Below are positions 6,449 to 54,932 of a stretch of 64,000 bases of DNA, piece by piece. The position numbers and the translations under genes are program-made. The stretch's first letter is position 1; each line of letters begins with the position of its first letter. The notes beneath the pieces were generated by a model. That model had not been told where the DNA came from. It saw only the letters and a list, made by a program, of their open reading frames with translations, and did not search any database. This DNA comes from an uncultured Flavobacteriales bacterium (GTDB lineage Bacteria > Bacteroidota > Bacteroidia > UBA10329): the NCBI GenBank assembly GCA_937900875.1, contig CALCGD010000268.1, positions 4,334 to 68,333 of the forward strand. The letters are read 5' to 3'.

Positions 6449-6570
6449 CAGCCTTATTTTCAATAAGTTACATGTATAGGCATTAAAGCTCTATATTTCT
6501 CTGTAGAATAAAGATAAATGGATTTACATGGTCTGGCCCCAGGTAATCCGTAGGAAGCCTTTAGGTGCCC

Positions 6571-7485: not shown

Positions 7486-7491
7486 GTGAAA

Positions 7492-9360: not shown

Positions 9361-9423
9361 AGCTCACCTAACCGTTTCACGTGGAACAAACCTAACTAAT
9401 TGAAAATCAACTGGTTGAATCAA

Positions 9424-9846: not shown

Positions 9847-10248
9847 TTATCCGACTTTGAAAATCATTTCGACCTTAGTTCCGTTTTCTGAGAACTCAAC
9901 TTCATCGGCCAAGTGTTTCATTAGAAAAACGCCACGGCCACTAATCTTTTCTAGATTTTCAGGGTCAGTCGGGTCAGGTAAACTATCATGGTCAAAACCC
10001 TCTCCTTCATCGCGAACGCTAAAGGAAAGCCTGTCAGCGCGCTCAATAAATTCTAGGTGAACTTTTTTCTCTGGGTTTTGTCGGTTACCATGGTTTATCG
10101 CATTGTTAACTGCTTCAGTTACAGCGATAAGTATGTTTCCATAGTAGTCTTCGTCAACAGAGAATTTTTTACATACATCATCAACCAGCTTTTCGGCAAT
10201 TACGATGTTGTCGGCCTTTGAGTCGAAATTCAGGCTTTGTTTTTCCAT
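9847..10248 (-). CDS. GHKL-type ATP-binding protein (anti-sigma regulatory factor / Ser kinase-like)
   Basis: 133 aa with an N-box (EAVNNAINHGN) and a G-box-like segment (DEGEGFD). Its stop abuts the ybeY start. Confidence 0.7.
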   Translation of the reverse strand: MEKQSLNFDSKADNIVIAEKLVDDVCKKFSVDEDYYGNILIAVTEAVNNAINHGNRQNPEKKVHLEFIERADRLSFSVRDEGEGFDHDSLPDPTDPENLEKISGRGVFLMKHLADEVEFSENGTKVEMIFKVG

Positions 10249-10256
10249 TGGTCTAG

Positions 10257-13200
10257 TTATTCGACATGCTGTTTAAAGTACTCATCAACCATGTTCCGGT
10301 AGAACGGATTTAAGTTTGGAGGTACAGTTCTTAGCAGTTCAGTCTCATTATTTTTCCGTCTTATATACTCGAAAAATATCTCAGGGTTACCATAATCTTC
10401 ATTTTGTGCTTCTTTAGACTCTCTCCGCTCTTCTTGTTCCCTTTCTCTCTCTGCTTTTTCTGCCTCTAAGAGCTTCGTTAGAATTTCTTGTTGACGCATC
10501 AAGGTTTCTTGCGTAATCATTTTGTTTACGAGGTCGGTTTCAGTCTGCTCCATGAGCTCTTGTAGTTTTTTCATTTCTCCACCAGCCCCTGCACTTCCAG
10601 CTTTTCCGTCTTTTTTTAACTGAGATTCGTACTCCCTGGCCATGTTTCTTAAGGCCTCCTGTTGTGCCGCCATTTTTGCGAACTCTTTACTCATGCCTTT
10701 ATTTCCAGGAGACATACCGGGCTTATCGCCTGGTTTCTTTCCACCCGGACTCATGCCTTTTTTCATACTTTCCATCTGCTTGTTCATCTGCTCTTGCAGA
10801 CTTCGCATAGCGCCAGCGGAGGGTTTTCCGCTGCTACCTGGTTTATTACAAGAACCAGAACCAGGCATTGACGATGCCATGGCTTGCTGCATTTGCTGAA
10901 CCGTTTCACTTAGCATCAATGCTAGGTTGTTTATTGAGGTCAGGGCAAACTGTTGCCGCGACAAAGCATCTGAAGTCTTCCTATCCGCCATATTTTGGAT
11001 GGACTTCTTCATGTTGCTATTAACCGCTCTTATTTCCCGATTTACAATCGTTTCTATTTGTGGAAAACGCTTACTAAGTGCGTATAAAGAATCTTCAATC
11101 AATTTACTATCGTCTTTCAGCTTGAGCTGCTCTCGCGCCAAATCAGTGTACTTGGGATCGTTCTGATTGGTGATTTTTAAGGTGCTAATGAGTTTTTCTT
11201 CATCAAAAGACAGCGTGAGTAAATTCTCTACAATTTGTCGCAGCGCCTCTAAATCTTCTTGTTGCCCCTGCGCTTGCATTTGCATCATCATATTGCCCAT
11301 TTTTTGAGCCATGTTTTTCATTTGATCGGACGCCTTTTTCTGAGATTCTGACGCTTTTTTGTTCTGCTCTTTGTCTAGTTGTTCTTGACTTTCCTTTTGG
11401 CTGTTTTCAACCGATTCTTCCTCATTTTCAAAGTCCTCCATATCGTTAGGACTTTCTAAATCGCTGTTCTTTTTTTCTAAATCGTCTAACTCTTTCTTTA
11501 TATCCTCGAATTTCTCATTCAGTTTTTCTTGTTTATCTGAAAGTTCTTCATTCTCACCCGTTTTTTCTTTTGTCTCTTCAGATAACTCTTCTTGTTCTTT
11601 CGCTAACTCTTCTAAACGTTCCATCGTTTGTTCAAGTTTTTGTTCAAACTCTAATTGCTTAAACAATTCGAGGCTACGATCAAGCTCTTTTTCAAGGTCT
11701 TCATTGCTGAGTTCTATGTCTTCAAGAAGTTCCTGAGCCTTGTCTTTGGTCATTTCCTCCATCAATTTTTCCATTTCATCAAACAACTTCTTCATGTCTT
11801 CAGACATAACCTCTTCAAATAGTTTTTCAAGTTGTTTCTGCTTTTCAACCAACTGCGGGTCAAACTCCATCATCTCATTCATTTTGGAGTTTTTCTGTTC
11901 GCTCTTTTGTTGAACGTCTTCCATGCGGTTTTGCAGGCTTTTTTGCATTGCTAAAACCTGTTTCATTTTTTCTTTATCCTCCCAATCAAGATTCTTTTTG
12001 TCGAGCAAGTCTTTCTGAAGATCTTCAATTGACTTCTTCATTTCCTTAGCCATTTTCAGACTTTCAGTAAGGTTCTCTTTCAGTTTTTCGCTTTGTAAGT
12101 CATTTTCCTTGGCCAATTCGTCCATCGTTGCAATGCGGTAAGTGCTTTTTTCGGTCCGACTAGACTTGCTTCCGTTTACTCCATCATTGTCCCATACTTC
12201 GAAGTAGTATTCAATGGCATCACCTGGCACAAGTCCGATAGAAGAAAGGTCCCAGAAATGGTAAAACGACTCTGACCGTTGACCCTTAGAAACATTTAGA
12301 GCGACCTCGGATAATTCATTTGACTTATCCAACTTCTTATACTTGAAAACCAAAGAGGAGAAGCCGTAATCATCTTTAATCTGGCCGTTGAAATACATCC
12401 GCTTTGGATTTAGCGAATCTTCTACACCAATTACCGAAATAGATGGGTATAAATCTGGAATAATGGTTACCGTATAACGAACAGAATCACCAGAATTGAT
12501 GAATTTATTTGAACCGACTAACGCATAGTTTGTGCTTCTAGAGAATCGTTGAGAAAAACTAAATCCGTTTTCAGAAGTCCGATCAACGTTTTGCTTTTCC
12601 TTACCGAAAAACACAGTGACGGCTTCTGTTTTCGAAGTACTTAACTCCCAATTTACCTTAGTCCCTTCTGGAATCAAAAGGTCTCCTGTATTGGACAGAG
12701 ATTCATCCGTTCGTCCAATGTATTTTGGGAATTCAAGTGATATATGGAAGCCAACCAAATTCGGTTTTGGTAGAACGCTAAGTGTATGAGTTGGTGAGTT
12801 AAACCCGTTTCCTTCAAACTTAAAATCAACGTTTTCTCTTGGTTGATGAAAAACGTATGAGAATTTGGCTGCACTTAACTTGTTCATTAACGTGCGTTTG
12901 CCAGCTACCTCCACATAAAGATCGTTCGGAACTTCGTTTCCATCAAGAGACACAAGGAGTTCAAAATCTTGCATTTCAATTGTGCTTAGTTCTTCGTTTT
13001 GAATATTGAAAAGAAACGGGGCAAGATTTTCAAATGCCGTTCTGTGATTAACAATTCTTCTAGTTCCTTCTCTAACCAAAGTGGGCCAAAGCAGCAAAAG
13101 ACCAATAAGCAACAAAAGAGGAGGTAAAGCATACCGTAAAAAATGCCTGTTTTCTTTTAAATCGATGGCTGTTGAAAATGGAATAGGCTTTAGTTCGCCT

Positions 13201-39255: not shown

Positions 39256-39738
39256 ATGAAAATCCTCGCCCTATCAATAGCCTTGTTTTTAGCCCCGTTA
39301 CACGAGTTTCATTCGTCTGTAACGCAAGTAGACTACAACGACAAGAATAAGTCGCTAGAGATAACGGTGAGGTTATTTACAGACGATCTATGTATTGCTT
39401 TGGAAAAGACAGGTGCTCCTAATTTGAAATTAGGCACACAAGCCGAGCCACCTTCCGCCAACGAGTATTTGGAAAAATACCTGCAAAAACACCTTCAGTT
39501 TGTGGTAAATGGAAAGCCTGTACAGTTCAAATATTTAGGCAAAGAAGCGCAACTAGACGCAACCTGGTGCTACATAGAAATTGAAAAAGTAAGCAACCTA
39601 AAAAAACTGGAAGTTGAAAACACCGTATTGCTTTCCGATTTTGAGGACCAAACCAATATGGTAAATCTCAACATAAACGGAAGGAAGAAAAGCGGCCTAG
39701 CCAGAAACGGCAATGCTAAGTTGAAGTTTGAACTTTAG
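39256..39738 (+). CDS. Hypothetical secreted protein
   Basis: 160 aa, signal peptide, 1 nt after the upstream stop. Confidence 0.5.
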   Translation: MKILALSIALFLAPLHEFHSSVTQVDYNDKNKSLEITVRLFTDDLCIALEKTGAPNLKLGTQAEPPSANEYLEKYLQKHLQFVVNGKPVQFKYLGKEAQLDATWCYIEIEKVSNLKKLEVENTVLLSDFEDQTNMVNLNINGRKKSGLARNGNAKLKFEL

Positions 39739-40772
39739 AGAACGGTTACAATTTTTTCCCCTCTTTCTACCATTTCACCAATTTTCCAAACCTGCTGATT
39801 TTCTTTTTCGGCCATTTGAAGGAATGTCTTCTCAGATTCATAATCCACGCAAATCAACAAACCACCACTTGTTTGTGGGTCGCAAAGCGTAAAGAGCTGT
39901 TCGCCACCGAGCGTGCTAGATTTAGACGAATATGTGCTGAAGTTTTTCATCGTCATATCGGGGTAGATAAACTGGTCGAGATATGTTTTTAGGTTCTCGA
40001 TTAGAGGAACATCCATGTAATTTATCTGAGCAGAAACACCACTTCCTTCGCAAACTTCAATAAGATGACCCAATAGCCCAAAACCTGTAACATCGGTCAT
40101 GGCAGAAATGCCCGCCAATTCTGAAACAACCCCTCCAAACGAGTTTAGCTGAAGCATCTGTTTTACGGCCCGCTGATGGTCTTTGGCATCCGCCTTACCA
40201 CGTTTTTGGGCAGTGCTTAAAATACCCACCCCCAAAGGTTTGGTTAGATAAAGTAAATCTCCAACCTGGGCTTTGTCGTTGGTTTTAAGATTGGACAGAC
40301 TTACAGAACCGGTTACCGCAAGTCCAAATATTGGCTCAGATGAATCGATGCTGTGCCCTCCTGCCAAAGGAATATTAGCCTGTGCGCAAACAGCCCGTGC
40401 CCCTTCCATTACTTGCTGTGCAATGGCGGTTGGAATTTTACCTACAGGCCACCCAAGAATTGCGATAGCCATCAAAGGCTTTCCGCCCATTGCATAAACA
40501 TCAGATAATGCGTTTGTAGAGGCAATTCCACCAAAACTGAAGGCGTCATCTACAATTGGCATGAAAAAATCTGTGGTGCTAATAATTGCCTGATCGCCAG
40601 CAATTTGATAAACCGCAGCATCGTCTTTTGTGCTGTTTCCAACAAGAAGATCTGTGAATTCTGCAGACTTATTTGGCGTGAAAAGAATCTCCTCCAATAC
40701 TTGTGGCGAAATTTTGCATCCGCAACCTGCGCCATGAGAAAATTGGGTCAGTTTAAACTCTTCCGTGTTCAT
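39735..40772 (-). CDS. selD: Selenide, water dikinase (selenophosphate synthetase), Cys-type
   Basis: N-terminus TQFSHGAGCGCKISP (Cys rather than Sec at the catalytic position); AIR-synthase-like fold. Confidence 0.92.
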   Translation of the reverse strand: MNTEEFKLTQFSHGAGCGCKISPQVLEEILFTPNKSAEFTDLLVGNSTKDDAAVYQIAGDQAIISTTDFFMPIVDDAFSFGGIASTNALSDVYAMGGKPLMAIAILGWPVGKIPTAIAQQVMEGARAVCAQANIPLAGGHSIDSSEPIFGLAVTGSVSLSNLKTNDKAQVGDLLYLTKPLGVGILSTAQKRGKADAKDHQRAVKQMLQLNSFGGVVSELAGISAMTDVTGFGLLGHLIEVCEGSGVSAQINYMDVPLIENLKTYLDQFIYPDMTMKNFSTYSSKSSTLGGEQLFTLCDPQTSGGLLICVDYESEKTFLQMAEKENQQVWKIGEMVERGEKIVTVL

Positions 40773-41833
40773 AGTTTGTGGTAATTTGCTAGGTCTATAA
40801 GTAGACGGGCGTTGGTCTTGGCGACACCGTTAGGGAGTTCGGTTGTTATTGGTTTTCTGTCGAGATATTTGTCCTTGCTAAACGCATAGCGTTTATCGTA
40901 ATAGCGAAGTAAAAGCTCGGTTACCTCGGGTAATTTTGCGTTTTCGAGCAATTCTAAAGCCTCATTCATGTTTTGGCCACCAAGGTTTTGCTGAAGTTTG
41001 CGAATGCTTTTTTCCAACTCAGATTTAGGGGCAGCACCATAGTCATCTACCAATCTTTCCACCCGAAATTCCATCGGAAGATGAATAGCAATTGCCTGTG
41101 CATTTCTCATAGTTGTCCAAAGCGGTTGAGGTAGATACACGCGTCCTATGGTCATCCCCTCACGCTCAATCCATATCCGCTTAGTAAGATCAAGCTTTTG
41201 TAATTTGTGGTGGAGGTTGTTCTGAAATTGCTGAGATGTTGGTTGCTCTGGCAGCCCTATATTCCCGAATGCAGAACCTTTATGATTGGCTAAACCTTCA
41301 AGGTCTAATATTTGCTCACCCTGATCTCTAATAGCGTGAAGAATGTCTGTTTTTCCGCTTCCAGTGGGGCCATCAATTACCAAGAGGTTCTTTAAGTCTA
41401 AAAACCCATTTAGCGCAGCGTTTCTATAAGCTTTGTAGCCACCCTCAAGCAACGTACAATTCAATCCTATTTGTTCAAACAACCAGGCCATACGATTACT
41501 TCGCATTCCCCCTCGCCAGCAATAAACACCTATGGTTCCGTCAACTGCAGCGTCTTTTGCCTTTTGTGCCAAAGCCGCCATCTTCGGACCAACAATTTCA
41601 AGTCCTTTTTCAATGGCATCTTGCTTTCCTTGCTGCTTATAGATGGTTCCAACAATCGCGCGTTCGTCATCTCCAAATAGTGGAATACTAATAGCCCCTG
41701 TTATATGACCCGAAGCAAATTCTCCGGGAGAACGGACGTCTACTAAAGGCGTTCCAGCTGTTGCAAAAAGATAATCTCGGGGTTTGAGGTACTCCATTTT
41801 AGGAGTAGCGAAGCTATCTGTTCTTAAGTACAT
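40769..41833 (-). CDS. selU: tRNA 2-selenouridine synthase (MnmH/SelU/YbbB)
   Basis: Rhodanese domain (DVRSPGEFASGHI) plus P-loop (GPTGSGKT). It overlaps the selD start by 4 nt. Confidence 0.88.
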   Translation of the reverse strand: MYLRTDSFATPKMEYLKPRDYLFATAGTPLVDVRSPGEFASGHITGAISIPLFGDDERAIVGTIYKQQGKQDAIEKGLEIVGPKMAALAQKAKDAAVDGTIGVYCWRGGMRSNRMAWLFEQIGLNCTLLEGGYKAYRNAALNGFLDLKNLLVIDGPTGSGKTDILHAIRDQGEQILDLEGLANHKGSAFGNIGLPEQPTSQQFQNNLHHKLQKLDLTKRIWIEREGMTIGRVYLPQPLWTTMRNAQAIAIHLPMEFRVERLVDDYGAAPKSELEKSIRKLQQNLGGQNMNEALELLENAKLPEVTELLLRYYDKRYAFSKDKYLDRKPITTELPNGVAKTNARLLIDLANYHKL

Positions 41834-41855: not shown

Positions 41856-42437
41856 ATGAGTTGTACCTACTTTCCATCGCAAATGATTACCCGAGAACAG
41901 GAACAAGAGCTAATAAGGAAGGCGCAAAAGGATATTAATGCCTTTGGCCCTCTCTATGATGCTCATTTCAGTACAGTTTTCGGATTCATTTTTAAGCGTG
42001 TTCGGAGTCAATCTTTAACAGGAGAGCTGACCTCGCTTGTGTTTGTAAAGGCCATGAATTCCATGTCTAAGTATGTGATTACTGGCGCCCCACTTTCGTC
42101 TTGGCTCATTCAAATCGCGCTAAATGAGGTGCGACAATATCATCGAAGAACTAAAAAGCAGACATCAGTGCCACTTAGCGAGGCTGATTTGGTTTCTGTG
42201 TTGAGTGAATTGGATGACAAACAAGAGAAAGAACGTAACATGGATGCGCTCATTGAGGCGCTTAATAAGCTAGACGATGAAGCATCCATCTACGTAGAAA
42301 TGCGTTTTTTTGAAGGAAGGTCCTTTAAAGAAATGGCAGAGATTTTGAACATATCTGCCGATAATGCCAAGGTGCGGACCTATCGCGCTTTGAACCGATT
42401 ACGAACAATAATGACCAACTTCGGCACAACAAAATGA
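41856..42437 (+). CDS. ECF-subfamily RNA polymerase sigma-70 factor
   Basis: Region 2 (FGFIFKRVRS...) and region 4 HTH (RSFKEMAEILNISADNAKVRTYRALNRLR). Confidence 0.85.
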   Translation: MSCTYFPSQMITREQEQELIRKAQKDINAFGPLYDAHFSTVFGFIFKRVRSQSLTGELTSLVFVKAMNSMSKYVITGAPLSSWLIQIALNEVRQYHRRTKKQTSVPLSEADLVSVLSELDDKQEKERNMDALIEALNKLDDEASIYVEMRFFEGRSFKEMAEILNISADNAKVRTYRALNRLRTIMTNFGTTK

Positions 42438-42658
42438 CGCGTTATCACGCAAATACCGAAACAGAAAAGAAGGGTTCTTTTAACGAAGTTCCGTCTCAAG
42501 ATGAGATGAACAAGTACAAGGACTTTGGCAAGCTGACGCATAATTACCAACGGATGACTAATCCGCTGTACAAACGCCCAATTTATAGATACAGAAAGGG
42601 GTTTCTGGTAATTCTACTTGTTTTGATAGTGCTTTGGCTTGTGCTAGAGTTCGGTTAG
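42434..42658 (+). CDS. Small membrane-anchored protein, candidate minimal anti-sigma factor
   Basis: 74 aa with a cytoplasmic N-terminus plus C-terminal TM (FLVILLVLIVLWLVLEF). It overlaps the sigma factor stop by 4 nt. Confidence 0.5.
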   Translation: MTRYHANTETEKKGSFNEVPSQDEMNKYKDFGKLTHNYQRMTNPLYKRPIYRYRKGFLVILLVLIVLWLVLEFG

Positions 42659-42791
42659 AAATTTTTTTCTGTTCCCTTTTTTAATTCCTGCATTCTATTG
42701 ATAGGACACTGAGAATTCCGGCCGGATATCAGTCCTGAAACACTACGCCAAATGGCGTGGCTAAGGATTGTATTAACCAAACTCTACTATC

Positions 42792-44405
42792 ATGGCTGGA
42801 CAGAAAGAATCTTCAAGACAAAAAATGATCGGGATGATGTATCTCGTTCTTACCGCGCTGCTTGCGCTCAACATTTCGAAAGATATTTTGGATGCATTTG
42901 TAATTGTAAACGAAAGCTTAGCGGCAAGCTCAGAAACTACTGCTAAAAAATTGGATGCTCTGTACTCCGATTTCGATTTGGCAAAGGCCGTTGACCCGAA
43001 AAAAGTCGACAACTATTGGGCACGATCTCGCGAAGCTAGAAGACGAGCTTCCGAACTCAACACGTTTATCGACAGTGTTAAAACCACACTCATATCAAAA
43101 ACAGAAAAAATAGACCGTTCCGTGGCCGATACACTTTCGATGGAGCTCATTGCAAAAAAGGACGATTACGATACGCCCACTAACCTTCTTATTGGCAGTA
43201 AAGAAGACGGATCGAGCGGCTTGGCTAGTAAACTCAAAAACAAAATAGTGGAGTATCAAGACGCAATGAGGGAGTTGTTAAATGAGCAAGACCAAACCTA
43301 TTTCAACGACCGAATTAATGTTGCAGATAGAAAACTAGTCGACAATACATCGACCTGGGAAACCAACAATTTTTACAACACACCATTGGTTGCGTCATTA
43401 GTGATACTCTCCAAGTTACAGATGGATGTGGCGGATGTTGAGTATGATGTGGTGAACAAACTTTACCGTTCGTTTAATCAGAAAGATTTCTTTTTTGACA
43501 CCATTGCCGCAACCGTCTTGCCTCAAAGTAATTACGTTTTGCTAGGGGAGGAATACTCTTCAGACATTATTGTAGCTGCTTATAGCACCACACGGTCACC
43601 AAAAATCAGAGTAGGAAAACTGAATAAAGAGGGTAACGAATTAACCTCGTTGGAAGACACAGTAGCTACCGAAAACGGAAAAGGCCTTTTCAGAAGACGC
43701 GCAACCGCTGAGGGAATTTTCAGCTATCAAGGAATGGTGGATTTGATAGATAGCGAAGGAGAAACTCAGAGCTACCCTTTTCAATCGGAATACATCGTTG
43801 CAAGACCATCACTGGTGGTTTCAGCGACTCAAATGAATGTGCTTTATAAGGGAATAGAAAACCCAGTTGCTATTTCTGTTCCAGGCGTACCGGCAGAAAA
43901 AATTAGGGCAACTATTACCGGGGGGAACACACTGAAAAAAGTAGGTTCTAATTCATACATGGTTCAAATGACACCAAGCTCTCCAAACCAAGTTTTTGTA
44001 AATGTTTCCGCTACAATGGCTGATGGATCAACCAGAGATATGGGTCGAATGGAGTTTCGAGCTAAGCGCTTACCAAAACCATTTTCTGCCATTAATGGGA
44101 AGGAAGGAGCAATCAGAATGTCGCCAAATGAAACCTGCGCTCAACTAGGGCTTTCTGCCAAATACGATTCAAACTTTGCCTTCAATCTATATTGCAACGT
44201 GACCAAATACCGTGTCTTGATAACTGACAACAAAGGTCAAATTGTATTGAATACTGGTTATGATGGCTCTCGCTTTGATGCAAGTTTGAAGAGCAAGCTG
44301 TGTGCGGTAAAGCCAGGTTACAGAATCACTTTCGAAAACATAAAAGCCGTTGGAAGCGATGAGGTGGAACATGAGTTGGCCCCAGTCATAATCATTGTAA
44401 AGTAG
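42792..44405 (+). CDS. gldM: GldM/PorM-family protein (T9SS / gliding motility), stand-alone copy
   Basis: N-terminus MAGQKESSRQKMIGMMYLVLTALLALNISKDILDAF matches the GldM N-terminal TM/signature; about 537 aa, typical of GldM. Confidence 0.8.
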   Translation: MAGQKESSRQKMIGMMYLVLTALLALNISKDILDAFVIVNESLAASSETTAKKLDALYSDFDLAKAVDPKKVDNYWARSREARRRASELNTFIDSVKTTLISKTEKIDRSVADTLSMELIAKKDDYDTPTNLLIGSKEDGSSGLASKLKNKIVEYQDAMRELLNEQDQTYFNDRINVADRKLVDNTSTWETNNFYNTPLVASLVILSKLQMDVADVEYDVVNKLYRSFNQKDFFFDTIAATVLPQSNYVLLGEEYSSDIIVAAYSTTRSPKIRVGKLNKEGNELTSLEDTVATENGKGLFRRRATAEGIFSYQGMVDLIDSEGETQSYPFQSEYIVARPSLVVSATQMNVLYKGIENPVAISVPGVPAEKIRATITGGNTLKKVGSNSYMVQMTPSSPNQVFVNVSATMADGSTRDMGRMEFRAKRLPKPFSAINGKEGAIRMSPNETCAQLGLSAKYDSNFAFNLYCNVTKYRVLITDNKGQIVLNTGYDGSRFDASLKSKLCAVKPGYRITFENIKAVGSDEVEHELAPVIIIVK

Positions 44406-44411
44406 GAAGCG

Positions 44412-45101
44412 ATGAGGCGATTGAAATTGATGGTAGGAAGTCTTCTACTTGCATTAATGATGGTTCAAACTGGGTGTTCTCAAAAGCCACCAGATTATAC
44501 TGAAGTAAAATCTCAAATAGCCGAAAGAAGGGTACAGCTTTGTGCAGCATACAGCAATGAAAAGTGTGACAAGGATTCTGTTGTGCGCTGTGCACAACAG
44601 TTCCTATTCACCACAATGACTGGACAAGTCTTTCCAAGCTGGTATGGGACTAAATGGGATTATAATGGCACGACCGAGGAACCAAGAAAAGGCCACATAG
44701 CCTGTGGGTATTTTGTCACCACCACGCTGCGCGATTTAGGGTTCAACATTCCTCGCGTGCGTTGGGCTCAACTTCCTTCAGAAACCATGATAAAAGAGAT
44801 GACCGAAAGCAGCCAAATAAAGCGGTATCGGTTTGCTGACATCAAACACATTGAAAGCGAAATCCGCACTTGGGGCGAAGGACTTTATGTGGTGGGAATG
44901 GATTCTCACACGGGATTCATTGTCAATATAAACGGCAAATGTCGCTTCGTTCATGCGGATTATTTCAATCCCTCGTTTGGGGTTATTTCGGAAGCTCTAA
45001 ACACGGACAATCCACTTAAGAGTTCGAAATACCGTGTCATTGGAAAGATTCTTACTGACGAAATGGTGCGTAAGTGGCTCGATAATCAGCGTTTTCCTTG
45101 A
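44412..45101 (+). CDS. Hypothetical lipoprotein
   Basis: Lipobox (MMVQTGC); 229 aa; 6 nt after gldM-like. Confidence 0.55.
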   Translation: MRRLKLMVGSLLLALMMVQTGCSQKPPDYTEVKSQIAERRVQLCAAYSNEKCDKDSVVRCAQQFLFTTMTGQVFPSWYGTKWDYNGTTEEPRKGHIACGYFVTTTLRDLGFNIPRVRWAQLPSETMIKEMTESSQIKRYRFADIKHIESEIRTWGEGLYVVGMDSHTGFIVNINGKCRFVHADYFNPSFGVISEALNTDNPLKSSKYRVIGKILTDEMVRKWLDNQRFP

Positions 45102-45144: not shown

Positions 45145-47265
45145 ATGCAAAATAAGATAGCTACGGAAGTTGGATGCAAGCCTAGTCAGGTTGCAAGCAC
45201 CTTGAGTTTATTAAACGGTGGTGCCACGGTTCCTTTTATATCGCGGTACCGTAAGGAAGCAACAGGTGGGTTGGATGAGGTTCAAATTGCTCGAATTAAA
45301 GAGTTAGCCGAACGTTATGCAGAATTGGAAAAGCGGAGGGAAACAATACTTGCCTCACTAAAAGAACAGGATGTACTCACGCAAGATTTAAAAACTAAGG
45401 TTGAGGGAGCTGCTACTATACAAGAGTTGGAAGACCTCTACCTGCCGTTTAGACCGAAACGCAAGACGCGAGCATCAATGGCGGTGGAGTTGGGATTGGA
45501 GCCCTTAGCCAAGATTCTGATGGCCCAGAATGAGCGTTTTCCACAACAAGCCGCTCAACGATTTGTGAAAGGAGATGTTGCTTCGGTTGGAGACGCACTC
45601 CAAGGCGCTAGGGACATTATTGCCGAATGGATGAACGAGAACGCGGCTTTGCGGGCGCGTTTACGCCAATTGTTTCTTCGCGAAGCAATGATAAGCTCCA
45701 AACTGGTGAAGGGTAAAGATGATTTAGGGGAGAAATTTCGAGACTATTTTAAGCATGAAGAACAACTTAAACGTATTCCCTCTCATCGTTTTTTAGCCAT
45801 AATGCGTGGCGAGAAAGAAGGGTTTTTAAGAGTCAACATATCTCCTAAGGAGGAAAGCGCATTGCAACTTCTAGAACGCTTTTTTGTCAAAGGTCAAACA
45901 GCCAGCTCTGATGAGGTGAAAACTGCAGCCAAAGACGCATATAAACGCCTTTTGCAACCCTCTTTAGAAACCGAAATGCGTAGTACGTTTAAGCAACAAT
46001 CGGATGAGCAAGCGATTAATGTTTTTGCCGAAAACCTTCGGCAGTTGCTCATGCTTCCACCGCTTGGCGAGAAGCGAGTGTTAGCACTCGACCCTGGTTT
46101 TAAATCGGGATGTAAAGTGGTGTGTTTAAGTGCACAAGGTGATTTGATGCATAACGAAAACATTTATCCACATCCACCTAGAAATGAGCGTTCTCAAGCA
46201 ATGAAAAAGCTTTCAACGCTAGTGGAACAGTACAAAATTGAAGCAATTGCCATCGGAAATGGAACGGCTAGCAGAGAAACGGAAGCGTTGGTGAAAGCCA
46301 TTCATTTTGACAGGAAAGTGCAGGTTTTTGTGGTAAGCGAGGCAGGAGCATCAGTCTACTCGGCAAGCAAAGTAGCAAGAGATGAATTCCCTCAATTTGA
46401 TGTAACCGTCCGCGGTTCTGTTAGTATCGGAAGAAGGCTGATTGACCCGCTTGCAGAGTTGGTGAAAATAGACCCTGCGGCAATTGGAGTTGGTCAGTAT
46501 CAACACGATGTGGATCAAAAGCAATTGCAAGCTTCGCTTAGCCGTGTTACAGAAAGTTGTGTGAATCAGGTTGGCGTAAATCTTAACACGGCTAGTAAGT
46601 TTCTGTTAAGCCACGTGTCCGGGTTGGGGCCACAATTGGCGGATAACATACTAGAGTTCAGGCTACAAAGCGGAACATTTTCATCGCGCGATGAATTAAA
46701 AAGTGTTCCACGATTGGGAGCAAAAGCGTTTGAGCAAGCCGCAGGGTTTCTTCGAATTCCGAATGCGAAAGACCCGTTAGATAACTCTGCGGTCCATCCA
46801 GAGCGCTACGGATTGGTAAAAAAAATGGCCAGGGACTTGAAAGTGACGGTGGCTGACTTGATTGGGAATGAAGCTTTAGTCAACTCAATTAACCTTCCAA
46901 ATTATGTGACTATTGAGGTTGGCTTACCAACGTTACAAGACATTAAAGACGAGTTACTAAAGCCCGGAAGAGACCCACGCAGAATTATTAAAGTTTTTGA
47001 ATTTGAAGCTGGAATAGCGAAAATCACTGACTTAATTCCAGGAATGGAGTTACCCGGTATCGTAACTAATATCACCGCTTTTGGGGCATTTGTAGATGTA
47101 GGTGTTAAGCAAGATGGCTTGGTGCATATTTCGCAATTGGCTGATAGATTCGTGAAAGACCCAACGGAAGTGGTGTCTGTTCATCAGCACGTGCGGGTAA
47201 AAGTGATGGAAGTTGATGCGGCTAGAAAGCGCATCGCTTTTAGCATGAAGGGGCTTAACGAATAA
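45145..47265 (+). CDS. tex: Transcription accessory protein Tex (S1 RNA-binding)
   Basis: N-terminal Tex HTH region (VPFISRYRKEATGGLDE), YqgF/HhH domains, C-terminal S1 domain. Confidence 0.92.
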   Translation: MQNKIATEVGCKPSQVASTLSLLNGGATVPFISRYRKEATGGLDEVQIARIKELAERYAELEKRRETILASLKEQDVLTQDLKTKVEGAATIQELEDLYLPFRPKRKTRASMAVELGLEPLAKILMAQNERFPQQAAQRFVKGDVASVGDALQGARDIIAEWMNENAALRARLRQLFLREAMISSKLVKGKDDLGEKFRDYFKHEEQLKRIPSHRFLAIMRGEKEGFLRVNISPKEESALQLLERFFVKGQTASSDEVKTAAKDAYKRLLQPSLETEMRSTFKQQSDEQAINVFAENLRQLLMLPPLGEKRVLALDPGFKSGCKVVCLSAQGDLMHNENIYPHPPRNERSQAMKKLSTLVEQYKIEAIAIGNGTASRETEALVKAIHFDRKVQVFVVSEAGASVYSASKVARDEFPQFDVTVRGSVSIGRRLIDPLAELVKIDPAAIGVGQYQHDVDQKQLQASLSRVTESCVNQVGVNLNTASKFLLSHVSGLGPQLADNILEFRLQSGTFSSRDELKSVPRLGAKAFEQAAGFLRIPNAKDPLDNSAVHPERYGLVKKMARDLKVTVADLIGNEALVNSINLPNYVTIEVGLPTLQDIKDELLKPGRDPRRIIKVFEFEAGIAKITDLIPGMELPGIVTNITAFGAFVDVGVKQDGLVHISQLADRFVKDPTEVVSVHQHVRVKVMEVDAARKRIAFSMKGLNE

Positions 47266-50200
47266 GCGCTACACGGCCCAGCTTTTTTAAGCCCCGGCCC
47301 CGATAATCTTCATACAAAATTTGGTAGGTGTAAATTCCCGTTTTTACCTCTTTACCTGTTTTTCTGTCTGTTCCGTTCCATCCAACGGTAATGTTGTTGG
47401 TATAAAAAAGCACTTTTCCCCAACGGTCGAAAACACGGAAATCTATGTTGTTAATGTCTTCTCCGTACGCATAGAAAACATCGTTAGCTCTATCCTGATT
47501 GGGTGAAAAAGCGCTCGGAACATAAAGCGTTGTGAAGGGCGCTATGTACACAGAATCTGAGTACGAATCTGGACAACCGAAGCTGTTAAAAGTGGTAAGC
47601 GTAATTACTTGATACCCTGTATCGCTAAAGAAGTAAGACGGGTTTTGCTCGTCAATGAGAGCTGACCCATCTCCATAATCCCAACTCCAAGAGATTGCAT
47701 TTTCACTTAAGTCTTCAAAATGAATGAGTGGCTCAAGAGCTGTTGTGTATGTAGGGTCTGCACTAAACAACGAGTTAGGCGTTGGGTTTACCGTAATGGT
47801 TCCGGAAGCATCATCGGTGCAATTTCCGAGGGTCGCCACCATGGTTACATCAAACGTTCCTTCAGACTGATACAAAACAGAAGGGATTGAATCTGTAGAC
47901 GTTTGCCCATCGCCAAAATTCCAGACGAAAGTGACTCCCGTAAGTGGAGTAGTTAGGTTTTCGAAGAGCAGTGTATCACCAATACAAACCGAATTTCCAG
48001 AAAATGCTGCTGATGGAACTGGCTCAACGTCAAGAGTGGTTTGGTCTGAGTTCAAGCAGCCAAAAGCGTCTGTACCAATTACGGTGTAAGCAGTTGTTGC
48101 AACAGGCGAGGCTGATGGGTTTCCGATTGCCGCATTGTTCAAACCAGTTGCTGGGTCCCAGACGTAAGTTGCTGCACCAGAGGCATTGAATCCAACACTT
48201 TCTCCAGCACAAATAGGACCGTAGTTACCGGCTAAAACTGTCGGTAGATCGTGCACAGTAGCTGTAATGGTTTCGGTGGTTGTGCAGTTAGCATTAGCCA
48301 CCGAATAAGAAAGGGAAAACACTCCAACGCCCGATGTAGCTGGCGAAAATATACCTGTCGGATTAGAGATTCCCGTGCCTGCCCAAGTCCCTCCCGCTGG
48401 TGTAAATCCTGCTAGCGTTTCGTCTGGACTATCAATACAAAGATTAATGTCTGAACCAGGATTAACCGTTGGAGATGTTATGATATTCGTAACAATTGCT
48501 GCACTTGCTAGGCTCGTACAACCATTGTCGGTGGCTTCTACAGTAATGCTGTTACCAGCAACCAATCCAGTTGTGGTCCATGTTTCGGAAGCAGAATTCT
48601 GTACGGAAGTAGCACCATCAAAGAACTCATAATTGTCAAATCCAGACGGGTTGGCCGTGAAGGTTATCGATTCTCCTTGGCAAATTTCATCATCAGGATC
48701 TGAACTGCTTATTGTAACGCTAGGGAAAGGACTAACCACCGTAGTTATAACGGCACTTGCCGCGCTAACACATCCTTCGGCACTGGTTCCAACTACTGTC
48801 ACCCCAGTTCCAGAAACGAGAGTATTGGTTTGATAAAAGTTTGATACGCCAGTTTGAACAGAGGCAAGAGCTTCGAAGAATTCATAATCTGCGAGTCCCA
48901 ATGGCAATGCAGTGAAAATGATATCATCCCCTTCGCAAATACTATCGTTTAAATCTGAGCTGACTAACGTGACTTGAGGAATTGGATTGACTTGCGTAAC
49001 AATTGCGGCACTTTCTGCACTTGGGCAGCCATTATCTGTTGCAATGACAGTGATGCTATTGTTAATTGGAATCGTTCCAAAAAGAATTTCGCTCACTCCG
49101 TTTTGAAGAGACGTACCGCCATTGAAAAACTCGTAATTACCGAGTCCTGCGGGTGATGCTGTAAACGTGATTGTTTCACCTTCGCAAATCTCATTGTCCA
49201 GGTCGTCTGAAGCCAGAGTAACGGTCGGAATTGGATTTACAGTAGGTACAATTGTATCGCTTGGATTCGCAAAACAGCTGCCTACAAATGCTTCTACGTA
49301 AATACTATCTCCTTGCTGAATAGAGGAACTAGTGTAGATGGCAAGCGGACCGTTTTGAACGGATACACCATCAATGAAAAACTCGTAATTGTCGTAAGTG
49401 GCGGGTGTTGCAGTAAACACAATAGGATCTCCTTCGCAAATTGCAGTAGAACTCGCGGTAAGTGTGACATCATAACTATTGAGCTGAACGATTACTTGGG
49501 TTGAGTCCGTAACTGGTCCACAGCATTCTGTTTGCACCGTAACCTTAATCCAATACGTTCCGGGGGTGGTGAAAAACACATCCGAAGTAGTGGTAAGCGC
49601 TGGTCCGGATTCGATGGCAGGATTAGCCGCTGGTCCAAAACTCCAATCGTATTGGGTGCCTGTTAAAGTTGTTGAGAATTGATTAGGGCATCCGACATCA
49701 ACCGTTCCATTTGCAGGAGTTATGGTGGGCAACGTAGGGCCATCGCTAAAAACTTCGATGAAGTCTGTAAATGCAGTTCCACTAAAAGTGATTGTTCTCC
49801 TTCCGTAGGTAGAATAGATAACCGCGAATGGACCACTGCCATTAGCTGTGGCGGGAGTAGCGCCTAATCCGAAATCCCAAGCACCACCACTAGGTGATGT
49901 GAAGGTGATATCTGCGTTAGTACAGCCATAATTATCTACCGAAATGATTGGTGGATTGCCAGGTACTCCTGCAGTTCCATTTGCGCTTATGGGCGTCCCT
50001 CCACCTTGCTCAGAAACGGCTACACTAGGCCCTGCAATTCCTGCTCCTCCAGCCCCGCCTGCACCTCCAGCTCCACCAGCACCTCCAGGTGCGCCATTAC
50101 TTGTACCACAACCAAAACCAGGACCACCAGCCCCTCCGGCCCCTCCAACACCACCTGCTCCGCCTGCCCCACCAGCGCCTCCTGTCCCACCGGGTCCAGG

Positions 50201-51343
50201 GTTTGCAAAGCAGTCAGTTATTGCACCCCCAACTCCATTATTCCAAAGAAAAACAGCAAAAGAACCACCACCACCTGTGCCACCAGTGCCACTGGTACTG
50301 CCACCACCTCCGGCACCACCACCACCACCGCTACCTCCGGTTTGGTCGTTTCCGCCTTGCTGTCGGCCGCCACCGCCACCGCCACCGCCACCACCGCAGC
50401 CATCGCCACCAGCAGTGCCGTTTCCACCAGGCCCGCCTAATGTGTAGTAGCCACCAGCAAAAGCGCCAGCGGTTCCGATTGAACCTGCGCTACCTGCCAA
50501 TCCGGTTGAACCAGGTTGTCCAGCAACAGGATTATTGCCCTCGCAATCGTTATTGTTACTGCTACCAAATAGTCCGCAACCACAATTAGCTCCCGATCCA
50601 CTGTTTCCACCTGCTCCTCCGCAACCTCCAGGTCCACTACCAGCTTGCCCACCTGCGGACGAACCGTTCCATCGAGCACTTATGCCGCCATTTCCTCCAT
50701 TGTTAACTCCAACACCACCTGCTCCACCAGGAGGAGGAGCGTTTTCATATCCCGCAGGAAGTCCAGGGCTACCTGGGCTGCCAGGCGTTCCTGGAATGCC
50801 AGGAGAGCCAGGTAAGCCAGTGCCGCCTGCGCCAGTAGTTATTTCGCAACGAACGATGTTGTAGTTGGAGCTTACAGCTAAATAAATTCCGTAAACCGAA
50901 ATACCAGCTGAACCAGCATCTGCCACATTAATGGTCAAATCCTGCAAGCGAAACCCGCTCGCGTTAAGCCCCGCAAATCCAACCAATGCATTGGCCGGTG
51001 GAGGTAACGCATTTGCATTGGTTCGGTTGATAATTGTGGGAGTTCCATTGCTCTTTACCCAAGTTACAGGGTCAAAACCACCCTCAATGGTAACATCGTT
51101 GGGAATAGATATGAATTCTGTTATTGTGTAGGAACCAGCTGCTAACCACAGAATATTATCAGTGGCATTTAGCATACTAATACCGGTTAATAAATTGGCC
51201 GGGTCCGTTCTAGTTCCACTTCCGGCTGGGGTAGCTGTGGAGGTCACATAAATTGGCCCACATGTAGTCTGAGCCTGCGCCTCTACATTTTGCAGAGCTG
51301 AGATAAACGCCACTATGAGAATAAATGTAAATGACCTAAGCAT
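47255..51343 (-). CDS. Giant secreted cell-surface protein/adhesin with T9SS type-B C-terminal domain
   Basis: Signal peptide; N-terminal beta-helix-like domain; about 265-aa collagen-like Gly-rich tract; four tandem 83-aa CEGD...YEFF repeats; PKD-like (FGDGQ, YGDGS) domains; C-terminal FSPNQDRANDVF...type-B CTD. Confidence 0.88.
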   Translation of the reverse strand: MLRSFTFILIVAFISALQNVEAQAQTTCGPIYVTSTATPAGSGTRTDPANLLTGISMLNATDNILWLAAGSYTITEFISIPNDVTIEGGFDPVTWVKSNGTPTIINRTNANALPPPANALVGFAGLNASGFRLQDLTINVADAGSAGISVYGIYLAVSSNYNIVRCEITTGAGGTGLPGSPGIPGTPGSPGSPGLPAGYENAPPPGGAGGVGVNNGGNGGISARWNGSSAGGQAGSGPGGCGGAGGNSGSGANCGCGLFGSSNNNDCEGNNPVAGQPGSTGLAGSAGSIGTAGAFAGGYYTLGGPGGNGTAGGDGCGGGGGGGGGGRQQGGNDQTGGSGGGGGAGGGGSTSGTGGTGGGGSFAVFLWNNGVGGAITDCFANPGPGGTGGAGGAGGAGGVGGAGGAGGPGFGCGTSNGAPGGAGGAGGAGGAGGAGIAGPSVAVSEQGGGTPISANGTAGVPGNPPIISVDNYGCTNADITFTSPSGGAWDFGLGATPATANGSGPFAVIYSTYGRRTITFSGTAFTDFIEVFSDGPTLPTITPANGTVDVGCPNQFSTTLTGTQYDWSFGPAANPAIESGPALTTTSDVFFTTPGTYWIKVTVQTECCGPVTDSTQVIVQLNSYDVTLTASSTAICEGDPIVFTATPATYDNYEFFIDGVSVQNGPLAIYTSSSIQQGDSIYVEAFVGSCFANPSDTIVPTVNPIPTVTLASDDLDNEICEGETITFTASPAGLGNYEFFNGGTSLQNGVSEILFGTIPINNSITVIATDNGCPSAESAAIVTQVNPIPQVTLVSSDLNDSICEGDDIIFTALPLGLADYEFFEALASVQTGVSNFYQTNTLVSGTGVTVVGTSAEGCVSAASAVITTVVSPFPSVTISSSDPDDEICQGESITFTANPSGFDNYEFFDGATSVQNSASETWTTTGLVAGNSITVEATDNGCTSLASAAIVTNIITSPTVNPGSDINLCIDSPDETLAGFTPAGGTWAGTGISNPTGIFSPATSGVGVFSLSYSVANANCTTTETITATVHDLPTVLAGNYGPICAGESVGFNASGAATYVWDPATGLNNAAIGNPSASPVATTAYTVIGTDAFGCLNSDQTTLDVEPVPSAAFSGNSVCIGDTLLFENLTTPLTGVTFVWNFGDGQTSTDSIPSVLYQSEGTFDVTMVATLGNCTDDASGTITVNPTPNSLFSADPTYTTALEPLIHFEDLSENAISWSWDYGDGSALIDEQNPSYFFSDTGYQVITLTTFNSFGCPDSYSDSVYIAPFTTLYVPSAFSPNQDRANDVFYAYGEDINNIDFRVFDRWGKVLFYTNNITVGWNGTDRKTGKEVKTGIYTYQILYEDYRGRGLKKLGRVALIR

Positions 51344-52843: not shown

Positions 52844-53643
52844 AATTGATAGCTAAGATACAAGCCACCACCGCCATTTAACCCATAAGGTGAAATGGTT
52901 AACACTTTTGTAATTGACTTTCTTCTATGCAACCACGGCACTAAATATCCAATTGCTCCTCCAACGAAATATCCAGCAATAAGGTCTGTAGGGAAATGCT
53001 GACCAGATTCAAAACGTAAGTAACCGACAACGATAGGAACTAAAGCAGCGCCAGTCCAAACAAGTGCCTCGTGTACGTGGTTTTCGGAATAATCTGAGAA
53101 GACTTTTGCGGTAGTAAAGCATAATGCTGCTGTAAGCGATGTATGACCAGAAAAGAACGAAAAGCGCGCGTCACGTTCGGTTTTATGATGCATGCTAACC
53201 GAAGGATTGTAGACAAATGGTCTAGGGCGCTTAACCCCCGCTTTGGCAAATTCGGTAATACCAAGGGTTATCATGGCAACCTCAGCATAAATAAAACCAA
53301 CAACTAGGTAATCCTTTCGTGCACGTTTGTTTATCATCATAAAAGCGGGAAGAGCAAAAGAGGCATAAAGGACTGCATCGCTGGCCGTTTTCACCTTCGG
53401 ATTCCAATTGTTTATAGCAAATCGATCAATGCCAGAAAGCGCGTAAGAATCTAACGAATTGACTTGGGCGGCAGTTAATGGCCTTGTCTGATAGTCGGCA
53501 AAAACGCCACCTGCTAAAATTAGACCCGCTCCTGACGAGTAGATAAGATCCTTTTTCCAGTTGAAGTTATAGGGACTTTCTTGCGATAGGGCTGAATTCG
53601 ATAAAATGGCGCACGAAAGAAGAACGAATAGGCCGAATTTCAT
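52840..53643 (-). CDS. PAP2-superfamily phosphatase, secreted
   Basis: KX6RP (KAGVKRPRP), SGH (FFSGHTS) and SRX5HX3D-like (ESGQHFPTD) motifs. Confidence 0.8.
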   Translation of the reverse strand: MKFGLFVLLSCAILSNSALSQESPYNFNWKKDLIYSSGAGLILAGGVFADYQTRPLTAAQVNSLDSYALSGIDRFAINNWNPKVKTASDAVLYASFALPAFMMINKRARKDYLVVGFIYAEVAMITLGITEFAKAGVKRPRPFVYNPSVSMHHKTERDARFSFFSGHTSLTAALCFTTAKVFSDYSENHVHEALVWTGAALVPIVVGYLRFESGQHFPTDLIAGYFVGGAIGYLVPWLHRRKSITKVLTISPYGLNGGGGLYLSYQL

Positions 53644-54932
53644 TTGGCTAAAATTAGTTGTTGCTTGTAAAGCTTTCCCTTTTCTATGAGCACCGCAAGA
53701 TAAAGTCCATTAGGCAACCAAGATAGGTTCATCGATTTGTCAGCAACGATATTTTCAGTCGCCACCAGCAGCCCTTGAGAATTAAAGAGCTGAATTGTTC
53801 CAGGTTTGAACGAACGTATAATACCATTCGATGGATTTGGGAACAGGTTTGCAGTTTCGTTTATGCTGTTTTCATGTGTCGAGAGGGTTCCTTGGTAGTT
53901 GAGTTCTAAAACGGATGAAAGCACCGTTCCGTTTGGTCCTATACCGCCTATCAGATACTTTTTGGTAGTGCTAGTGTTTGCCATACCCCTTAAGTCCATT
54001 GGCAGTGGCAAATCGGTTTCGTTACCCCAATCTCCAGAAGTAGGGTGGTAAAACACGGTTCTGTTTATGGGCGGTACTTGTCCAGAACCATTATAAGCCA
54101 CAGCATTGAAATTGTACGTAACGGTTGAGCCACCCAACCAATGCACGGCTTCTGAAGTGGTACAGGCAGCAGCCCTATACCCGCTTATTATGGGTTCGGG
54201 TTCAGCCTCAGACCATGTAATATCGGCTGGATTTAATGGATTGATAAACCCCTTTCTCAGTTCGGTTTGAGCCACAAAATTGAATCCAGCAGCCCCTCCG
54301 AAATAGTACAGCGTATCCCCCAAAATTTCTCCCGAAGCCCCAAAGCACTTATAGTTATTGTTGTTGGGAACGGGCTCTCCAACCGACCAAGAATCTAAAT
54401 AAGTATTGTAAACCTGCACGTTTGGCACGTTAGCATTGTTGCTCCACCCAGTAACTACGAAGATTAAACTGTCTTGGTAAACGGCCTGTACATGGTCATC
54501 AATCGGCACGGGAATTTCAGTACCATCCGTAATAAACTGATTCTGAGTAATGTCAAATCGATGTACCCGATGAGATGATATTTCATTTCCGTTTGGAAGT
54601 ACATGGTAGCCACCAATAATGTAGATGATGTTTCCTACTCGACTGGCAGCAGCGGCAATTTTGCCAAGGGTATCAGGCAGATTATCCAGCTCCACTACTT
54701 GTAAAGTTGAAGTATTTACTCTCCAAGATTTTAGGTGAATCCCACTTGATAAAAGCGTAGAATCAATACCTGAAAACGAATAAATAAACGAGCCCTCGGA
54801 AGAAAACCCCTCACAAACAGCATTGTTGGATACTGGTTCGGGTAAACTAGCCACCTCGGCAACAGTCCAGTTTTGCCCTACGGATAGAAATGGAATTAGA
54901 AGCACAATAAACAGGGAGAGGATCTTCATCAT
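53640..54932 (-). CDS. Secreted beta-propeller (Kelch-like) protein with T9SS type-A C-terminal sorting domain
   Basis: Signal peptide; repeated propeller blades; C-terminus LFPNPSNGIIRSF...GLYLAVLIEKGKLYKQQLILAK. Confidence 0.75.
   Translation of the reverse strand: MMKILSLFIVLLIPFLSVGQNWTVAEVASLPEPVSNNAVCEGFSSEGSFIYSFSGIDSTLLSSGIHLKSWRVNTSTLQVVELDNLPDTLGKIAAAASRVGNIIYIIGGYHVLPNGNEISSHRVHRFDITQNQFITDGTEIPVPIDDHVQAVYQDSLIFVVTGWSNNANVPNVQVYNTYLDSWSVGEPVPNNNNYKCFGASGEILGDTLYYFGGAAGFNFVAQTELRKGFINPLNPADITWSEAEPEPIISGYRAAACTTSEAVHWLGGSTVTYNFNAVAYNGSGQVPPINRTVFYHPTSGDWGNETDLPLPMDLRGMANTSTTKKYLIGGIGPNGTVLSSVLELNYQGTLSTHENSINETANLFPNPSNGIIRSFKPGTIQLFNSQGLLVATENIVADKSMNLSWLPNGLYLAVLIEKGKLYKQQLILAK

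Follow-up and report, generated by a model that had tools for sequence, protein, structure and literature searches.

The locus at 41856–45101 of a 64-kb stretch of DNA from an uncultured Flavobacteriales bacterium (the window) raises the question of why a gene for GldM, the rotor protein of the Bacteroidota type IX secretion system (T9SS) and gliding motor, should lie next to an extracytoplasmic function (ECF) sigma factor gene and apart from gldL, which encodes its stator. An earlier note, made from the letters alone, had read the locus as a run of four genes, for an ECF sigma factor, a 74-aa transmembrane (TM) protein, a stand-alone GldM-like protein and an unrelated lipoprotein, and had proposed either a paralogous GldM repurposed under sigma-factor control or a lineage with a dispersed T9SS motor. 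The four open reading frames (ORFs) do follow one another on the + strand, as had been claimed, and no gldK, gldL or gldN was found in the 64 kb. On the sequences compared below, the GldM-like protein belongs to a distinct, previously undescribed paralog clade, which we name GldM′. We place slightly better than even confidence in a full mechanistic chain in which GldM′ is a sigma-controlled paralog acting as an alternative rotor, and more confidence than that in the facts of the clade and of the promoter-like motif that accompanies it.

The 537-aa product of 42792–44405 (+ strand), with the N-terminus MAGQKESSRQKMIGMMYLVLTALLALNISKDILDAF quoted in the earlier note, is a structurally complete member of the GldM/PorM family. 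All four Pfam domains, GldM_1st, GldM_2nd, GldM_3rd and GldM_4th, are matched above their gathering scores (114, 63, 75 and 44 bits, respectively; E-values of 1e-32 to 4e-11), and the NCBIfam equivalog model TIGR03517 (PorM/GldM) scores 309.5 bits against a cut-off of 180, spanning residues 1–530. The family membership that the note had left to hidden Markov model (HMM) scoring is thereby borne out. The closest solved relatives are PorM 7CMG (202 bits), F. johnsoniae GldM (110 bits) and the GldM′ of 7SAU, a GldLM motor structure with GldM′ from Schleiferia thermophila, the species being that given in its paper. A model computed with AlphaFold2 (AF2) from a 37-sequence family alignment (predicted local distance difference test score, pLDDT, of 81) has an N-terminal TM helix, a long helical D1 and three beta domains, D2–D4. 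A Foldseek search with this model returned 7CMG at an E-value of 5e-32 and 6EY4 at 5e-26, and the per-domain TM-scores are 0.79 for D1 against 7SAU and 0.76 for D3–D4 against 6EY6. The four-domain architecture and the fold are shared with F. johnsoniae GldM and P. gingivalis PorM, the rotor that spans the periplasm in the proton-driven GldLM/PorLM motor (6YS8, 6EY4, 7CMG, 7SAU), as is the N-terminal TM helix with an equivalent of Arg9. Seventeen independent contigs from aquatic metagenomes encode the identical 537-aa protein among the same neighbors, and the locus is therefore not an assembly artefact. A pseudogene or decaying copy was ruled out by the same identity on 17 contigs together with the intact ORF, the retention of all domains and the invariance of the TM helix described below.

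A scan of one genome per GTDB species yielded 80 GldM loci, which divide by their score against the window protein. At 358 bits or less every GldM has gldL immediately upstream, and at 360 bits or more none has, except at L038, a short locus at a contig edge. In a neighbor-joining (NJ) tree of 87 GldM sequences, the 22 GldL-less proteins (the orphans) form one clade with a bootstrap of 86/100, and nearly all of the 65 others have gldL immediately upstream. Three loci seem to break this pattern, of which two are cut by a contig edge and one has gldL on its downstream side. As a side observation, L031 (10001–12424) encodes a canonical-type GldM followed by GldL (Pfam GldL_N, 82 bits), which is the inverted gene order. 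The window protein is 33–81% identical to the orphan GldMs and 26–40% identical to the canonical ones. Relatives at 66, 60, 46, 44 and 40% identity have a sigma factor gene and a small ORF upstream of GldM within otherwise wholly different flanks, relatives at 48 and 43% are lone GldMs, and none of these seven adjoins gldK, gldL or gldN. No GldL-like ORF is present at any orphan locus examined, with flanks of up to 10 kb. When the window and the first 14 related loci were translated in all six frames, a GldL N-terminal HMM, built from five GldL/PorL sequences taken from PDB entries, had no match. Unlike canonical GldM/PorM, GldM′ adjoins gldL, gldK or gldN in 0 of 22 cases and has its own promoter-like element and sigma factor linkage. 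These features, the absence of adjacent gldL, gldK and gldN, the element and the frequent linkage to an ECF sigma factor and a mini-protein, define the clade.

The clade spans metagenome-assembled genomes (MAGs) of differing taxonomic labels, and the GldL-linked GldMs of similarly labelled Flavobacteriales MAGs are placed elsewhere. Counted at 90% identity, its clusters among the close relatives number at least about 120 and probably more than 200. It is rare relative to canonical GldM, since it accounts for 0 of about 115 metagenomic GldM genes sampled by the shared invariant N-terminal peptide. The open-access literature that was searched contains no description of a GldL-less GldM clade, of the sigma/mini-protein pair or of the motif.

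The part of GldM′ that would meet the stator is the part that has changed least. The single N-terminal TM helix keeps the RQKMI..MYLV motif and the arginine equivalent to Arg9 of FjoGldM, a residue that faces GldL Glu49 in the solved motors (bioRxiv 10.1101/2022.01.28.478170). Residues 9–27 (RQKMIGMMYLVLTALLALN) are invariant or nearly so in the orphan and canonical sets, and R9 through Y17 are invariant in the 22 orphans and in 64–65 of the 65 other GldMs. Over residues 1–30 the orphan-to-canonical identity is 82%, as compared to 85% among canonical GldMs, with values of 34–42% for D1–D3 and 26% for D4, the most divergent domain. One column distinguishes the clades, being Tyr458 in the orphans and Met or Leu in the canonical proteins. 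Because the GldL-contacting helix is invariant, GldM′ would be expected to engage GldL, and use of the GldL from a canonical cluster is the most economical assumption since no gldL is co-encoded with any orphan. On these comparisons, GldM′ is probably an alternative rotor that fits into the GldL stator.

The sigma factor ORF extends over 41856–42437 (+ strand, 193 aa), with a likely start at ATG 41883 (184 aa) according to orthologue alignment and external gene calls. The product of 41883–42437 is an ECF (group 4) sigma-70 factor consisting of regions 2 and 4 only. It matches the Pfam models Sigma70_r2, Sigma70_r4_2 and Sigma70_r4 and the ECF model, with nothing between regions 2 and 4, in agreement with the earlier note, and scores 77.5 bits against NCBIfam TIGR02937 (cut-off 42.9). 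It falls below the cut-off of every named subgroup; the best specific models are BldN and SigY, and the closest solved relative is the BldN-type sigma 6DXO. Orthologues of this sigma factor adjoin an orphan GldM upstream in L015, L007, L008, L010, L011 and L013 and downstream in L018 and L020. Counting the window, the sigma/mini-protein pair is adjacent to an orphan gldM in 11 loci and in two gene orders; the list is completed by L217/L218, where the mini-protein is alone on the contig and the sigma position is lost at the contig edge. The other flanks of these loci are unrelated.

A promoter-like element, TGTTCC-N13-TGCATT, is located at 42670–42694 (+ strand), 122 nt before the GldM′ start codon, in the 133-nt gap between the mini-protein ORF and gldM′. 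No terminator-like site is predicted on the + strand between these two genes. The motif has the consensus TGTwyCTTTTT followed by TGCATT, with 13–14 nt between the hexamers (TGTTCC or TGTATC as first block), and it is found upstream of every sigma-linked orphan gldM. Of 23 orphan loci, 18 have it upstream of gldM′ by a regular expression applied to the coding strand within 450 nt of the start codon, and the remaining five carry near-variants; half of the 18 (nine loci) were not used to define the motif and have no sigma factor nearby. In canonical loci it is present in 0 of 54 cases upstream of gldK and in 0 of 61 at the gldK-gldL junction, which rules it out as a general gld operon promoter. 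With a two-block position weight matrix (PWM), the site at 42670–42694 is the only one in the window, with a score of 26.8 (0.05 expected in shuffles). Six PWM matches of at least 20 occur in 785 kb of metagenome loci, and four of them precede GldL-less extra GldMs, including the second gldM of L100 described below. The sigma factor gene, too, has a high-scoring copy upstream, at a distance of about 50 nt, in L010 (27.4) and L011 (21.4), the 99th percentile of the null being 17. The order in L018 and L020 is motif-gldM′-sigma-mini-protein, and in L217, to which a divergent short form of the mini-protein led, the motif sits between the mini-protein and gldM′ in a further module of this kind. 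Recurrent motif matches at about +80 inside gldM and about −1500 inside gldK were dismissed as coding-sequence coincidences. The match at about +80 nt, TGT[AT]TC-N15-TGCATT, is seen in orphan and canonical gldM (L012 6081, L019 10081, L059 10081); it encodes a conserved peptide and is a false positive in motif scans.

The simplest reading is that the motif may be an ECF-type promoter read by the linked sigma factor and sometimes autoregulated, and its presence before the sigma factor gene in L010 and L011 as well suggests an ECF regulon. It could instead be the site of another regulator or sigma factor, or a part of the leader, with its proximity to the sigma factor gene reflecting shared neighborhood ancestry, but we consider this quite improbable. 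The motif does persist in loci without a sigma factor. It is also missing upstream of the sigma factor gene in the window subclade (PWM at null level), where autoregulation is therefore unsupported. One sigma/mini-protein pair adjoins an unrelated gene with no motif, and the −10 block TGCATT differs from the CGT-type element of textbook ECF promoters. Against this alternative are the occurrence of the sigma/mini-protein pair beside gldM′ in two orders within otherwise unrelated neighborhoods, the copies upstream of the sigma factor gene in L010 and L011, and the motif at the head of gldM′-sigma-mini-protein in L018 and L020. The geometry is ECF-like as well, with a −35-like block, a T-tract, 13–14 nt and a second hexamer.

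The 74-aa protein is encoded at 42434–42658 (+ strand), with an ATG that overlaps the sigma factor stop codon (ATGA). The N-terminal segment, about 55 aa long, is cytoplasmic and carries the conserved YKDFGKL..NY...KPLYK.P.Y; one TM helix follows, with essentially no periplasmic part, and the protein is thus tail-anchored. The N-in topology is predicted from the basic residues before the TM helix. Nine orthologues of 74–96 aa share [Y/H]KDF.KL..N...P, a basic stretch, one TM helix and then 0–25 low-complexity residues, with K29, D30, F31, K33, L34, N37 and P49 invariant. The sigma-then-mini-protein arrangement with translational coupling is conserved in nine loci. Searches of Pfam and NCBIfam gave no credible match (two sub-threshold chance matches, E > 0.05), and PDB matches at E ≤ 10 are in the TM region only. 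The family has 90 representatives at 50% clustering, 12 of which are long forms of 386–413 aa (including P0410, P0412, P0419, P0427, P0439 and P0454). In the latter, the shared N-terminal domain and TM helix lead into a periplasmic domain of about 330 aa, for which neither Pfam nor the PDB gave a match. Both long forms examined adjoin an ECF sigma factor gene upstream, one overlapping it (L215 297–2106) and the other abutting the sigma C-terminus. These long forms look like an undescribed anti-sigma family.

From its architecture, the 74-aa protein is a candidate anti-sigma factor. The earlier guess to this effect gains from the coupling to the sigma factor, the conserved family and the long forms overlapping an ECF sigma factor gene, and is weakened by the lack of a match to any known anti-sigma family, such as the zf-HC2/RsrA-like domains of class I or the NepR/CnrY domains of class II. 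Some known membrane anti-sigma factors are short and depend on a separate sensor in the periplasm, as does CnrY, which works with CnrX and CnrH. Like CnrY, and like RsbN with BldN, the mini-protein is small and single-pass with a cytoplasmic N-terminal domain and is coupled directly after an ECF sigma factor; unlike them, it has no sequence similarity to known anti-sigma domains and, at 74 aa, virtually no periplasmic residues. Two other identities were rejected. A miniature GldL is ruled out by one C-terminal TM helix in place of two N-terminal helices and by the lack of an HMM match, and the short mini-protein and GldM′ as a split long-form protein by an hhalign probability of 0.2%.

Because the mini-protein has no periplasmic domain, it might read the status of the envelope or the T9SS through GldM′. 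GldM′ would then be the periplasmic input module of a sigma/anti-sigma switch, its TM helix packing against the mini-protein. The short mini-proteins indeed have a periplasmic tail of 0–25 aa, and the long forms have their own domain of about 330 aa and no GldM after them. The order sigma-mini-protein-GldM′ also mirrors that of sigma/anti-sigma/co-sensor operons, such as CnrYXH, in which CnrX signals through the short anti-sigma CnrY. However, 12 of 23 orphan loci have no sigma/mini-protein pair within 10 kb and yet keep the motif (two further orphan loci are on contigs too short to show a sigma factor), so that a regulated output fits better than an obligate sensor partner. The TM helix of GldM′ is invariant with that of canonical GldM, whereas that of the mini-protein is variable, which argues that it is GldL, and not the mini-protein helix, that constrains the former. 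Nor is GldM related to the periplasmic domain of the long forms, the hhalign probability being that given above. We regard the sensor role as unlikely, although it and the alternative rotor are not mutually exclusive and feedback is possible.

Is GldM′ an additional GldM or the only one in its genome? In the MAG palsa_969, an orphan (L026) and a gldL-gldM locus (L082) occur together, with proteins that are 35% identical; the two loci are mutual best tetranucleotide matches (r = 0.96, rank 1 of 73 loci), with GC contents of 44.8 and 45.4%. Since gldL and gldM are adjacent in 61 of 61 canonical loci examined, a lone gldM is most simply an extra copy. A second GldM downstream of the canonical copy on the same contig is seen in L100 (the same contig as L199), L106 and L143. 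In L100 (3406–9186), gldK-gldL-gldM-gldN-gldN′ is followed by a GldL-less gldM2, as assigned by Pfam, which is preceded by a terminator and then a TGTTAC...TGAATT element; the two-GldM region of L106 spans 6360–12361. The second (M2) and first (M1) copies are 97% identical in their TM helices and 26–68% identical in their periplasmic domains (about 50–59% in L100). Membership of the M2 copies in the orphan clade was ruled out, as each is a recent duplicate of its own M1. The arrangement of two GldMs to a single GldL is therefore demonstrated, and it has more than one origin.

The second proposal of the earlier note would make GldM′ the only GldM of a genome in which gldKLMN is broken up and the gene is under ECF control, with T9SS and gliding being conditional. 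It draws support from contig matching, by which no canonical gldKLMN was found for the organism of the window or its closest relatives. GldM′ also scores above the equivalog cut-off of TIGR03517 and has lost none of the residues that contact GldL, its scores against PorM and F. johnsoniae GldM are within the range of orthologue divergence, and the organism needs a working GldM because it encodes T9SS cargo. We nevertheless consider such a dispersed motor improbable, to about the same degree as the sensor role and less likely than a paralog. A single orphan clade crosses taxonomic labels, with the GldL-linked GldMs of similarly labelled Flavobacteriales placed elsewhere, and one MAG has both types of GldM. 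With gldL-gldM adjacency in every canonical locus, the break-up would have to be ancient and repeatedly inherited. Independent lineages have both a full cluster and, next to it, an extra GldL-less copy that an element of this kind precedes, and orphans are rare among the metagenomic GldMs sampled. The comparisons favor the proposed repurposed paralog, through the distinct GldL-less clade, its specific motif, the sigma/mini-protein linkage in two orders and the co-occurrence with canonical gldL-gldM in one MAG; for the lineage of the window, paralogy is extrapolated from that one distant MAG and from the analogous tandem cases.

Between the promoter-like element and gldM′ lies a conserved structured 5′ leader (42700–42791, + strand; inner hairpin 42743–42760) that is specific to the window subclade. 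It is common to the window, L015, L007, L016 and L008, with 79% mean column identity across the five loci. RNAalifold predicts a hairpin with three pairs showing compensatory changes, and none of 200 shuffled sequences reaches the stability of the leader (minimum free energy −26.7 kcal/mol, z = −3.4). There is no match in Rfam. The leader is presumably transcribed and could be a cis-regulatory RNA.

The fourth gene, at 44412–45101 (+ strand), encodes a predicted lipoprotein of 229 aa with a signal peptide and a lipobox-like VQTGC, and its ORF begins 6 nt after the gldM′ stop. Orthologues with 71–74% identity follow gldM′ only in L007 and L016, and it is probably a subclade-specific accessory gene co-transcribed with gldM′. 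The earlier description of it as unrelated thus agrees with its absence elsewhere and not with its position and its conservation in the nearest subclade. The lipoprotein has no match in Pfam or the PDB, and a single-sequence AF2 model was unusable (pLDDT 40). Residues Cys98, His166 and His181 are invariant in three orthologues and are reminiscent of a Cys/His hydrolase.

In the mechanism that we favor, the 74-aa tail-anchored protein would be a sensor-less anti-sigma factor that holds the ECF sigma factor at the membrane. Once freed, the sigma factor would direct RNA polymerase to the TGTTCC-N13-TGCATT promoter at 42670, giving a transcript of the structured leader, gldM′ and, in this subclade, the lipoprotein gene. 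The GldM′ dimer would then insert into a pentamer of GldL, supplied by a canonical gldKLMN cluster at another place in the genome. The divergent periplasmic domains of this alternative rotor, D4 most of all, may couple the proton-driven motor to a different outer-membrane partner; alternatively, GldM′ may compete with the housekeeping GldM.

Several points weigh against this mechanism. Beyond the missing canonical cluster and the extrapolated paralogy, the invariance of the TM helix is equally expected if GldM′ is the sole GldM of its genome. The assignment of the motif to the linked sigma factor is by association; the 12 of 23 orphan loci that have the motif and lack a sigma factor within 10 kb and the sigma factor gene of the window subclade, with no motif upstream, both count here. 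The mini-protein, as noted, resembles no known anti-sigma family, and one short-form sigma/mini-protein pair has no GldM within 5 kb. The clade bootstrap of 86% comes from NJ only. Every orphan-clade match in the homology searches is a MAG or a metagenome contig, none being from a cultured organism, and the clade is known from sequence alone.

Some features of the proposed mechanism have parallels in known systems. Alternative flagellar stators (MotAB/MotPS or PomAB) are exchanged around a common motor, and F. johnsoniae has the paralog pair GldN/GldO. The likeness lies in a conserved core and an exchangeable subunit with a conserved interface and a divergent output domain, and for GldM′ such swapping would be read entirely from the genes. 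The tandem K-L-M-N-N′-M2 loci duplicate GldN and GldM together. In the PorXY-SigP system of P. gingivalis, the structural genes of the T9SS, porM among them, are expressed under an ECF sigma factor (PMC4800418, PMC8265659), and the GldM′ locus may be analogous in linking an ECF sigma factor to the expression of a T9SS component. P. gingivalis SigP acts on the whole por set via a two-component system, whereas the sigma factor described here appears dedicated to one extra GldM; no cognate membrane anti-sigma factor is reported for the former (PMC8265659 does not use the term), whereas the latter is paired with a mini membrane protein. Neither PorX nor PorY is encoded in the neighborhood of the locus.

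The surroundings of the locus show no compositional break, with a local GC content of about 41–44%. Its neighbors are tex downstream and, on the upstream side and the opposite strand, selD and a selU-like gene. The pair of selD (AIRS/AIRS_C) and selU-like gene (rhodanese and AAA_SelU) at 39735–41833 (− strand) is divergent from the adjoining sigma factor gene; it is kept on the metagenome contigs with an identical GldM′ and is missing in more distant relatives. Of the four T9SS cargo proteins that the earlier note had counted in the window, two are confirmed, at 47255–51343 (− strand) with CHU_C and at 53640–54932 (− strand) with Por_Secre_tail. The former is a Gly-rich product of 1362 aa with PKD, Ig_7 and CHU_C domains, a T9SS type-B cargo, and the Pro-rich and His-rich ORFs opposite to it, such as 49944–50864 (+ strand), are mirror artefacts of its Gly-rich repeats. 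Other contexts of the orphans hint at a cell-wall link and at alternative regulators. An Amidase_3 (N-acetylmuramoyl-L-alanine amidase) gene is directly upstream of the orphan GldM in L014 (6367–12180) and L019 (8560–9882), and in L014 a TPR-HisKA_3 kinase and a GerE-type response regulator follow downstream.

Type IX secretion and gliding have no known energy source other than GldLM/PorLM, and current models take each motor to have a single GldM, with its gene next to that of its GldL, a view that a widespread GldM′ paralog challenges. A stator interface that is kept, outer-membrane-reaching domains that have diverged and regulators of its own suggest that the output of the motor may be re-wirable on demand. 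In a more far-reaching and rather doubtful version, the GldLM motor would be modular, with an envelope-signalling ECF sigma factor switching the GldL ring from the housekeeping rotor to GldM′ and so re-targeting or braking secretion and gliding. If true, regulated exchange of a rotor would be seen here for the first time in the T9SS motor, with at least two origins, the ancient orphan clade and the tandem M2 copies, which have one type of promoter as their common mark. Because TIGR03517 and Pfam call the orphan plain "GldM", HMM-based surveys of T9SS completeness can count it as a motor gene. The locus also offers a defined and testable ECF regulon of Bacteroidota, comprising the sigma factor, a consensus promoter and, as the anti-sigma candidate, a 74-aa protein from a new sequence family, and the orphan GldMs may serve as natural chimera-like variants for mapping the domain that specifies the outer-membrane partner.

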